Assembly (NCBI GenBank): GCA_044892505.1
Contig: CM097883.1
Coordinates: 159,774,001-159,838,000 of the forward strand
Direction: 5' to 3'
Length of the DNA stretch: 64,000 bases
Origin: Schmidtea nova
Taxonomy: Eukaryota
The notes under the pieces were generated by a model. That model saw only the letters and a list, made by a program, of their open reading frames with translations. It ran no database searches and had not been told where the DNA came from. Positions within the stretch are counted from its first letter, which is position 1, and every line of letters starts with the position of its first letter. Position numbers and translations under genes: made by a program. This document shows, piece after piece, positions 22,601 to 25,600 of the stretch.

Positions 22601-25600
22601 CATCACACATAGGTAAATCATATTTTTCTATTAGTTTGTGATTTGGCTCAAATATGCATTCCTCATCTGGTGCATTTGTAACATCTGCATAATATATTAT
22701 TTCGCTTTTTGATGGTACTTCAACCATTTGATTTAGAAATACTTCTCCGATCTCCTCAATAACTTCACCAGTTTGACCTTTCACTAATTTTCCGGTATTT
22801 AGATCGAGTGAGATTCCTTTTAACTGCTCCATAACGTCCATACCAATAAGGCATTTAACCGGGCTCTTTCTCATTACCACTACCCAGTGGGATATCTCTT
22901 GATCTCCAATCTTTAATTTGGCTTGTACTTTCCCTATGATGTTCAGCAAATTATGCGACATTGATTTAATACGCTTATTCGTTGGTTTCATTTCTTTAAT
23001 TTCTTGATACATTAATAATTCCTCTGACACAATAGTATGACTTGAACCTGAATCTAATAAGGCTTGCACTTTTCGATCATTAAATAAGACATCAATCCGA
23101 GGTTGTTTTCCTCCCGTTACCATCGTCATTAGTGCATAGCTGCATGGTAATCCGAGCATATTTTTGCGTTCAATTTCTGCACTCGTTGGTTCAATTTTCT
23201 CTGTTCCACTTTGAATATCATCTAATGGTTTCATCTCTTTTAACTTTTCTCCAGGATATACAGGTGCTGTCGGTACAAATGTTGGAGTATACCATCGAGT
23301 TAGTGTATCAATTCCGCTTAATTTTGGCATTGGTTCTAGTAAAAATCTAGTTTCTGGTTCTGTTTTATTTTTCAATATACCCTTCCGATAATATTTTGAC
23401 TCGGTATTACCTCCATCATTATTATTGTTCTGACTATTGATCTCTTCCGATTGACATAATGATTCCTCACTTTTTTGATCCTTTCTCAATTGTGCTCTTA
23501 CATTTGCCATTTCTTTGTATTGATGATTTGTAATGAAAAATCTGGCCAAAAATGGGATACAACTGATTATTATTTTCCATGACCATCCGGAAATAGCGTA
23601 TATTCTATGTGCTGACAACACTTGCGATACTATCACTTTCATTGTCACTGCAATTACGTAGATTCCAATTAAACCGGCACAAGCTTGCCCTAAGAACATA
23701 AATTTACCCCAAATCTTTTCCATTGTTTTATACGTGGCTCTTTTAAAATGATCGGGTGTCAACAAATACTCATAATTCACTTTTCCCTCTCCATTGGGTA
23801 ATATTGTATCAACCATTTCTGAAATTACCCTTTCCTTTTTCGATGGAAATAACAAATTTCTTTGAGCCTCTTCGATATCTTCGCTAGCATACAAACCCGT
23901 TTGTGCCATTTTATTTAATGATGTGAAATTTACTAAATATTCTAAGTTCGTTAATTCTAATTTATCAGGTGTTTTTACTCCTCTGTAATCTGGTAACGCT
24001 ATCCATGAATCTGGCGTTAAACGATACAACGGCGCAAGTAGTCGATTGCATTGTAATATTTTCGGTTTCGTCTGTTCTTCAAGCAATATTCGAGTAATTG
24101 GTTCCATAAATCGTAGCTTACCCCCAACACTTACGGGTAACTCATTTGTGCATTTTTCATATTTTGCAATTTTTACAGCGATTTCCTTACATTTGTAACT
24201 ATATAATGCTTCTCCAAAAATTCTCGCAAATACGCCATTTTCCGATATCAGCATAGGGGCTACTAAGTTCGGGTTTGTGACTGCCATTGCCATTCGATTC
24301 CGAAGAATCTCTTTATTCAATTTACAATCATTAAGAATCATTTCTCTATAAACATTCTCCATGATGTCCTGACTAAAATGAAATAAATAATCGATTTTGT
24401 TATTGAAATAATGCGTTAATTTAATGTCGTTTACATGAATTTTAGTTTTTGCGTCTTCAACTATTCCTTTTGAAACATAGACGCCTTTATAATTTGTTGT
24501 ATATAATATTCGCCCACATTTATTCGTAACTTCCTTTTTTATAAAACGCATGCTATCCATTGGCGATGTTGACATCAGAACTGCACTCATTTTCCTGGTC
24601 ATTATTGGAGTTGATTTAATTGCTTCTTTTGATTTATAATTCATGCTAAAACTATCGGGTCTTTCCTGAAATTGTTCTCCGATTATTTCTTTAAAATTCA
24701 TAGTTTTTAGAAAAGCCAAATTACATTCATTTACCTTTACATTATAAACTAAAATCGACTCTCCTGTTTGACAATTTGTCTGTTTCATATTACAGAATGG
24801 ATGTGTCTGTAATTTTCCCGTATCGTCATCAAATGCTCCTTCGAACTCTCTAAGTTCCGTAACGTACTCCTCAAATACTACCGTTTTATCCACCATTTTA
24901 CCATTCATTTTATACGGTTCGCCTTCGCAATCTCCATTTGCTTTCATTATCCCTTTCACAACTACTGTCTCTCGTATTCTGTGATTTAATTTAGCTTTCA
25001 ATCGGATTTCCGAACTTATTTTTAATTCTCCTGTTTGAAATGCTGTCAAACAATTTTCTGGAAAAATCTCAACTGGTCTCGGTATTGCATTTACTTTTAT
25101 TAATGACGAGTGGCTCCACTTTCCACAATAAAACACAAACGTTGTATGTTTCACGCTACACTCTCTAACTTTAGTTCGTCGTAAATCTGATTCTTGATAT
25201 ACGTGGTATTTTACATCATTTTCAACTTTTAACTTACTCGGATAGGCACCTGGGCATTCTGACATATCTACTACTGAATAGATTTTTCCCATTTCCGTTT
25301 GGGAGCAATCGTATGCAACTAATGATGTCGTCTGCGTAATAACTGTACACAAGATAATCATTGTAAACATCAACCATGGAAATATTCCGATTCTTTTCGT
25401 TTTCAGCCTGACTTTCTCACACAATTGTCTTGCTCCTTCCTCATTTTCTTTCGTATCTAGTGGTGGGCACAATGTCTTCCAGCCACCCTTTTCTTTTACC
25501 CAATTTATTAAATATTCATTTAGCATCCTGGCTGCCGTATCTATTAAATCATCCAACTCTTTCGACTTTACAAACGCATACGTTCCTATCTCTAAAATCG

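Follow-up and report, generated by a model that had tools for sequence, protein, structure and literature searches.

Putative late-domain motifs in the tail of a chuvirus-like fusion glycoprotein encoded by a Gag-Env-Pol gypsy element of Schmidtea nova

Introduction

The question raised by this locus is whether a retrotransposon carries signals for its own release on its fusion glycoprotein rather than on Gag. The window analysed is a 64,000 nucleotide stretch of the Schmidtea nova genome (assembly GCA_044892505.1, contig CM097883.1, positions 159,774,001–159,838,000 of the forward strand), and all positions below are those of the window. It contains an intact Gag-Env-Pol gypsy element of 15.8 kb with a Burro-like architecture (13953–29765, minus strand). 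[quoted passage not shown] PTAP binds Tsg101 and YPXnL binds the V domain of ALIX, as described in sections of PMC7923801 and PMC3874623. The best reading of the segment is that a chuvirus-like class III fusion protein has its cytoplasmic tail here, with VYPGEKL and PTAP as putative ESCRT-recruiting late domains.

Results

Position of the motifs

The peptide FVPTAPVYPGEKL is encoded on the minus strand, inside a single Gag-Env-Pol open reading frame (ORF) that extends from 28622 to 18441 (minus strand, 3,393 codons stop to stop). PTAP, a Tsg101-UEV-type motif, occupies amino acid (aa) positions 1784–1787 (23262–23273, minus strand). It is followed directly by VYPGEKL at aa 1788–1794 (23241–23261, minus strand), a ΦYPx3L ALIX-type motif, where Φ is a hydrophobic residue; the YPGEKL core is at aa 1789–1794 (23258–23241, minus strand). 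P[TS]AP and YPx3L are each found once in the 3,393 residues, and both occurrences are in this pair. The Env transmembrane (TM) segment lies ~112 aa earlier, the Pfam protease domain begins ~50 aa later and the catalytic Asp of the protease is 68 aa beyond the motifs. The placement given in the initial annotation is thus borne out by the ORF translation. VYPGEKL qualifies as ΦYPx(n)L, and PTAP as a literal P[TS]AP, in an accessible segment that is predicted from the topology to be cytosolic.

Shuffling the 140 aa linker 200,000 times produced P[TS]AP in 0.45% of cases and YPx1/3L in 6.3%, and the two together in 0.026%. These odds take no account of the motif having been chosen by eye and therefore the weight rests on the family test given below.

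Fold and topology of the Env region

Env is a gB-type (class III) fusion glycoprotein (23388–25370, minus strand, aa 1085–1745) that matches PF24664, Monjiviricetes_fusion, with a Pfam E-value of 1.1e-87. Ahead of it hydropathy displays an internal signal or signal-anchor (25311–25397, minus strand, aa 1076–1104), presumably cleaved, with a helix at model residues 5–17. A single TM segment follows at aa 1639–1672 (23607–23708, minus strand), which corresponds to a long helix at model residues 547–602, and the next hydropathy peak appears only after the integrase (IN). The model of Env, linker and PR was built from an alignment of 113 sequences, most long polyproteins being excluded, and has a mean predicted local distance difference test score (pLDDT) of 79. 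Its best match is herpesvirus gB (Foldseek, HSV-1 gB, E-value = 2.4e-15). The Env tail, or Env-PR linker (23115–23486, minus strand, aa 1713–1836), is disordered; pLDDT is below 50 at model residues 637–711 and 713–760, the stretch that holds the motifs.

The segment behind the Env TM is predicted to face the cytosol, because the gB-fold ectodomain sits between signal and TM and because Pol must be cytosolic. A lumenal linker was considered and rejected; no further hydrophobic stretch passes the threshold behind the TM, and Pol would become lumenal as well. The cytosolic placement assumed at first therefore agrees with the single TM, the disorder and the position of Pol.

Env-PR linkers of related polyproteins

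Eighteen non-redundant Env-PR linkers were compared after removal of five near copies. ΦYP is present in 12 of the 18 (1.3 expected from shuffles). Ten linkers match a strict form, short or long, where shuffles give 0.5. The long form is found in four linkers as against 0.23 in shuffles, and it recurs in P0004, P0010 and P0161. The closest relative, P0046, retains an AP-Φ-YP-x-EKLKEMK island within an otherwise diverged linker.

Motifs in homologous tails

A full HMMER scan gave 1,555 representatives at E ≤0.001, of which the best 150 were taken. Of 152 proteins screened, a TM match together with a tail of 25 aa or more was found for 116, the query among them, and 36 were dropped. The 115 non-query tails consist of 98 from stand-alone proteins, 15 Env-PR linkers and 2 unclassified. 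Word-index protein searches had found few relatives (2 of 3,594, 2 of 1,478 and 8 of 2,372 candidates), and a metagenome scan gave 187 pattern matches and zero relatives.

ΦYPxΦ is found in 44 of the 115 tails, with a shuffle mean of 0.88 (maximum 6 in 1,000 shuffles), and P[TS]AP in 20, with a mean of 0.96 (maximum 5 in 1,000 shuffles). ΦYPxxxΦ is present in 11 tails (shuffle mean 0.53), and the tally of ALIX-type motifs across tails comes to 60 of 115. Letter permutations of PTAP and PSAP each occur at most 3 times, compared with 11 and 9 for the true motifs. Control motifs are flat, e.g. Y[^P]xΦ with 33 against 32.9 shuffled and PY with 16 against 22.9. PPxY (6 against 3.1 shuffled) and di-leucine (10 against 6.9) were tried in the same tails and rejected as family signals. 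Among 81 YP sites, L, I, V or M is found at position −1 in 60 and at +3 in 57, where the background is 18%.

The motifs are concentrated in the tail. Per 10,000 aa, P[TS]AP reaches 24.4 in the tail, 0.2 in the ectodomain and 0.9 in Pol; the figures for ΦYPxΦ are 53.7, 0.4 and 1.7. The density in the tail is 25- to >100-fold that of the ectodomain or Pol. Only 3 of 6,670 tail pairs can be aligned. The excess survives when one sequence is kept per cluster at 45, 40 and 35% identity (63, 29 and 11 clusters), a thinning that merely lowers relatedness among the tails. Mapped on an unrooted tree of 111 Env cores, PTAP (21 carriers) requires 19 changes and YP (49 carriers) requires 28. Gains and losses are dispersed over the tree, as short linear motifs would lead one to expect. 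Since the tree is unrooted, no direction of transfer can be read from it.

The same counts bear on another meaning of the tyrosine motif, in which YPxΦ would act as a YxxΦ signal for sorting by clathrin adaptors and PTAP would be incidental to proline-rich disorder. The short YPxΦ is formally a YxxΦ and is present in 57 of the 115 tails, and such signals occur widely in the tails of viral glycoproteins. However, the YxxΦ without Pro at +1 is the flat control given above, Φ stands at +3 after 59 of 81 YP but after just 44 of 151 other Tyr, and a hydrophobic residue is selected at −1. The excess of P[TS]AP over its own letter permutations also speaks against a by-product of composition. In the query, the sequence at the Tyr is YPGE, with no bulky hydrophobic residue at Y+3, and is thus not a YxxΦ at all. 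A clathrin signal is therefore a very improbable explanation.

The protein to which the motifs belong

The motifs are also found where no protease follows. Among stand-alone proteins of 600–720 aa (n = 82), 34 carry ΦYPxΦ and 15 carry P[TS]AP, and in stand-alone G the protein ends a median of 17 aa past the motif. Twenty stand-alone proteins, mostly chosen for carrying motifs, were looked up by name; six are named and all six are chuviruses. P[TS]AP is present in five of these; the sixth is Lishi spider virus 1, with YPNL. Chuviruses encode just 2–3 major proteins, G, N and L, according to the sections of PMC4384744 concerned, and the word "matrix" is absent from the text of that paper as available. 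In the 7,635 aa on the Gag side of 10 polyproteins, P[TS]AP is absent, and ΦYPxΦ and PPxY occur once each.

The motif thus belongs, by these sequence comparisons, to the glycoprotein tail, and the initial proposal of late domains on the Env side rather than on Gag is upheld by the enrichment in homologous tails and by the lack of P[TS]AP on the Gag side. The likeness to HIV-1 p6 that had been drawn from the position next to PR did not hold up. The motif sits near the C-terminus of protease-free stand-alone chuvirus G as well, therefore its nearness to PR is incidental and follows from the point at which Env is inserted.

In the query, a further ΦYPxΦ (IYPMF) is situated at ORF aa 944 (~25790) on the Gag side, just ahead of a Bcl-2-like domain. 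It was not seen in 9 relatives.

These results also touch on the possibility that ΦYP in the polyprotein is an aromatic-proline cleavage site of the element's own protease, cut between Tyr and Pro so that Env is split from Pol. Among the sites cut by retroviral proteases, aromatic-proline bonds are a recognized class. The Tyr lies 30–91 aa before the catalytic Asp, and the coefficient of variation (CV) of this distance is 0.29, compared with a CV of 0.41 for the distance to the TM. But the 34 motif-bearing proteins among the 82 stand-alone G include the named, protease-free chuviruses, the spacing of 68 aa in the query is too long for a protease N-terminus and P[TS]AP is left unexplained. We regard cleavage as the sole meaning of the motif as most improbable, although a cleavage site and a late domain need not exclude each other.

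Weighing of the late-domain reading

Several observations count against a late-domain function of the pair. Eight of the 18 Env-PR linkers match neither strict ΦYP form. P[TS]AP is found in only one of the 18, a number reached in 165 of 2,000 shuffles and thus not significant, and P0046 displays PPAP where the query has PTAP. Neither motif is present in 45 of the 115 tails, and the shuffles used for the tails ignore relatedness. The named chuviruses come from a set selected largely by motif. Among relatives, Pol itself contains ΦYPxxxΦ in several cases and PTAP in P0005 and P0161, therefore such strings can arise without a budding role. In the query, the −1 residue is V and the spacer is G-E-K, and it matches the longer HIV-1 ALIX site LYPLTSLRSLFG (taken for comparison from the relevant part of PMC2397435) only in part. 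Lastly, in Toxoplasma the YPXnL-bearing protein GRA14 is dispensable for ALIX recruitment, as stated in sections of PMC8700025.

It had been expected that both motifs would be conserved against a variable linker. This stands only for ΦYP; for PTAP the picture is mixed, with 20 of 115 tails overall but 1 of 18 linkers. From the linkers compared, ΦYP is a conserved trait of the lineage and PTAP a labile, optional one. The initial interpretation was thus largely right in kind, with two corrections, that ΦYP is the conserved motif and PTAP a labile one, and that nearness to PR is incidental.

Regardless of what the relatives do, the motifs in this particular element could be functionless, as a chance match or a decayed one. 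The absence of PTAP from the closest relative and from 17 of 18 linkers agrees with this, as does the departure of the query from the commonest family form, L/I-YP-x-L. Against it are the rarity of the motif pair in the linker shuffles, the YP island shared with P0046 and the recurrence of the long form in three relatives. The ORF is intact besides, and the long terminal repeats (LTRs) differ at one base. We consider chance or decay quite improbable for the pair. For PTAP alone it is more plausible than for the YP motif, although still on the unlikely side.

A different function for true ESCRT contacts is an unlikely alternative. The motifs would bind ESCRT adaptors for sorting or clearing of Env or the polyprotein (multivesicular bodies, exosomes, surface) and not for virion scission. 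Every enrichment figure fits this equally well, the sorting of membrane proteins is the normal job of ESCRT and the tail motifs of GRA14 serve vesicle formation rather than virion release (the corresponding passages of PMC8700025). However, Gag is without motifs of its own and chuviruses have 2–3 major ORFs, so that any particles formed would have to take a scission signal from somewhere, and tandem PTAP and YPxnL are typical of budding proteins (sections of PMC3874623).

On balance, we assign a probability of about 0.6 to the reading that the Env tail recruits ALIX, and in this element also Tsg101, for budding. ESCRT binding and extracellular particles would follow for the element. The single polyprotein would be threaded through the membrane of the endoplasmic reticulum with its ectodomain lumenal and with tail and Pol cytosolic. 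The internal signal would tether Gag, also cytosolic, to the membrane, and the Env tail would do so for Pol. Where assembly takes place, ΦYPx3L may bind the V domain of ALIX as the steady route of the lineage, and PTAP may add Tsg101/ESCRT-I as a route often gained and lost. ESCRT-III and VPS4 would then sever the bud. The protease would release Pol afterwards, so that the motifs end near the new terminus of the Env tail, as in stand-alone chuvirus G. Env would thus take over the task done by p6 in HIV-1 Gag.

Organization of the element and its surroundings

The 5′ LTR (28897–29765, minus strand, 869 bp, TG..CA) and the 3′ LTR (13953–14821, minus strand) show one mismatch, and a GGAT target-site duplication flanks the element. 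Directly behind the 5′ LTR is a primer-binding-site-like sequence (28876–28893, minus strand), which may resemble tRNA-Trp. The polypurine tract is at 14822–14835 (minus strand).

Gag (27333–28520, minus strand) consists of a capsid-like region and four CCHC knuckles and is without P[TS]AP, PPxY or ΦYPxΦ. A weak match to a ubiquitin-like domain is found at 26655–26807 (minus strand, aa ~606–656, Pfam E-value = 0.035), and a second unit resembling it near aa 720–820, which makes one or two ubiquitin-like units within ~26160–26810 (minus strand). The ubiquitin-like region is common to 7 related polyproteins. One may speculate that a ubiquitin-like unit on Gag could offer a second ESCRT contact. 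The Bcl-2-like domain (25479–25742, minus strand, aa 961–1048) is likewise a weak match, below the Pfam cut-off (E-value 0.005–0.034), with many weak Bcl-2/Bax matches (E-value 0.46–0.97).

Behind the Env tail are the aspartyl protease, with DSG at 1857 (22815–23108, minus strand, aa 1839–1936, Pfam), the reverse transcriptase (21687–22163, minus strand, PF00078, E-value = 6e-31), RNase H (21111–21500, minus strand, PF17917/PF17919) and the integrase with zinc finger and core (20277–20795, minus strand, PF17921 and PF00665). Among related polyproteins, P0002, P0004, P0005, P0156, P0158, P0161 and P0163 have at least two protease-like D[ST]G motifs downstream of Env, those of P0002 looking like tandem protease repeats, and P0165 contains ankyrin repeats. 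P0006 is a Gag-Env-Pol polyprotein deposited as a Flavobacteriaceae protein from a metagenome-assembled genome and is probably eukaryotic DNA misbinned into a bacterial genome.

A second membrane protein follows IN in frame (18444–19637, minus strand). Hydropathy shows a signal-like segment, an ectodomain of ~320 aa, a TM and a short tail. It is predicted to be type I and ends in ETFV, presumably a class I PDZ-type end. There is a weak FN3/cytokine-receptor-like lead (scores 0.83–0.89). No match was found among the 165 collected proteins, and the single-sequence fold was poor (pLDDT 38.7), a fold search on that model giving noise. A separate ORF2 inside the LTRs (16618–18027, minus strand, 469 codons) is DEDD exonuclease-like, with hits to ISG20L2 (E-value = 2.6e-5) and ISG20 (E-value = 1.1e-4).

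Contigs of three public runs cover the element in 30, 30 and 29 of 30 bins, and two contigs span the motif site without gaps. One RNA run, of which ~12% was sampled, gave 300 reads, mostly in the LTR, with an internal depth below 1.4 and no joints, and is uninformative on expression and splicing. Window positions 1–4465 repeat the element's 3′ portion (15064–19531), with 801 bp matching at 99.6% and 3,421 bp at 100%, and stop at an N gap. The repeat reflects one of two things, a very recent further copy of the element or a duplication in the assembly. A small fragment at 49774–49935 (plus strand) resembles the PR-RT spacer of the element. Elsewhere in the window are a DUF4371 ORF (60535–61857, minus strand), a Tc1/Tc3-type transposase fragment (48256–48801, plus strand), a 51 bp tandem array (10115–10584) and direct and inverted repeats (53820–54094).

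Discussion

The element is a GAG-ENV-POL gB-type errantivirus of the kind described, in the portions concerned, in PMC13524379 (Ty3/gypsy elements of Nematoda, Bryozoa and Platyhelminthes). It shares with these the Gag-Env-Pol order and many copies, a gB-fold Env between signal and TM, a Pol of gypsy order (PR-RT-RH-IN) and LTRs. The traits found here are this Pol order, the gB-fold Env with signal and TM, the LTRs, primer-binding site, polypurine tract, target-site duplication and similar copies. That paper analyses ectodomains, and its main text, as far as available, is without the terms "late domain", "PTAP", "ESCRT", "cytoplasmic" and "budding". "PTAP", "late domain" and "ESCRT" were likewise not found in the text-searchable part of its supplements, long cells and figures lying outside the search.

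The giant gypsy element Burro, or GYPSM1, of planarians is similar in its polyprotein with a CCHC-knuckle Gag, an in-frame Env and PR-RT-RH-IN, and in its accessory ORFs (relevant sections of PMC6431247). Burro also carries Ubi/SUMO-like and BCL2-like domains before Env; the order is the same in the present element, where both matches are below the Pfam cut-off. However, the element measures 15.8 kb and 3,393 codons, whereas Burro is >30 kb and ~4,900 aa according to the same sections. The element has no Pfam matches to BIR, ankyrin or MATH, and it adds the membrane protein after IN and the DEDD ORF2. A Pfam scan of the element gave no dUTPase match, a dUTPase-like domain between PR and RT being a trait of Burro. 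Burro proper was rejected on size and on BIR, ankyrin and MATH, and the element is Burro-like only. The review PMC6431247, in the text available, has no mention of late domains, PTAP, ESCRT or budding.

Retroviral Gag proteins display the same motif classes, e.g. PTAP and LYPXnL in HIV-1 p6, YPDL in EIAV, and PTAP and IYPETL in HERV-K p15. Close spacing is also shared, as is a disordered segment that is later cut from its neighbours by the protease. The difference is that the putative late domains of the element are on the tail of a fusion protein and not on Gag. Chuvirus (Jingchuvirales) G and the copies of it captured by BEL/Pao "Anakin" elements (parts of PMC4384744 and PMC7642597) have the homologous PF24664 domain and the same tail motifs, but chuvirus G is a stand-alone protein, unlike the Env within the polyprotein. 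GRA14 is another transmembrane protein with PTAP and then YPXnL in a cytosol-facing tail, and TSG101 is recruited via its PTAP (sections of PMC8700025). It is a parasite vacuole protein and not a viral fusogen, and is unrelated in sequence as far as known. In the case of the Oropouche glycoproteins, ESCRT is used although no late domains can be identified in them, as given in the relevant part of PMC9888203.

Both the element type and the motifs are thus already known. What appears new is the placement of putative late domains on the tail of a fusion glycoprotein, together with the family-wide statistics. No report of late domains on the tails of this glycoprotein family was found in the open literature searched, subscription papers being outside that scope, and term searches of the available text of PMC7642597, PMC7923801 and PMC8402826 gave no mention. 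In the reviews searched, late domains are assigned to Gag, to matrix and to certain non-structural proteins, and none to a fusion-protein tail.

There is perhaps an even chance that the whole family of chuvirus-type class III fusogens, in free Jingchuvirales and in gypsy and BEL/Pao elements, buds by means of late domains on its own glycoprotein tail. If so, the fusogen would be a portable entry-plus-exit module. This would explain the budding of viruses with only G, N and L, and one captured gene would turn an intracellular retrotransposon with a late-domain-free Gag into a released particle. The tail motifs may offer one answer to how retrotransposons that capture env leave the cell and to how chuviruses bud with 2–3 major proteins. 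They also contribute sequence evidence that Gag-Env-Pol elements are under selection for release, beyond the keeping of a folded ectodomain.

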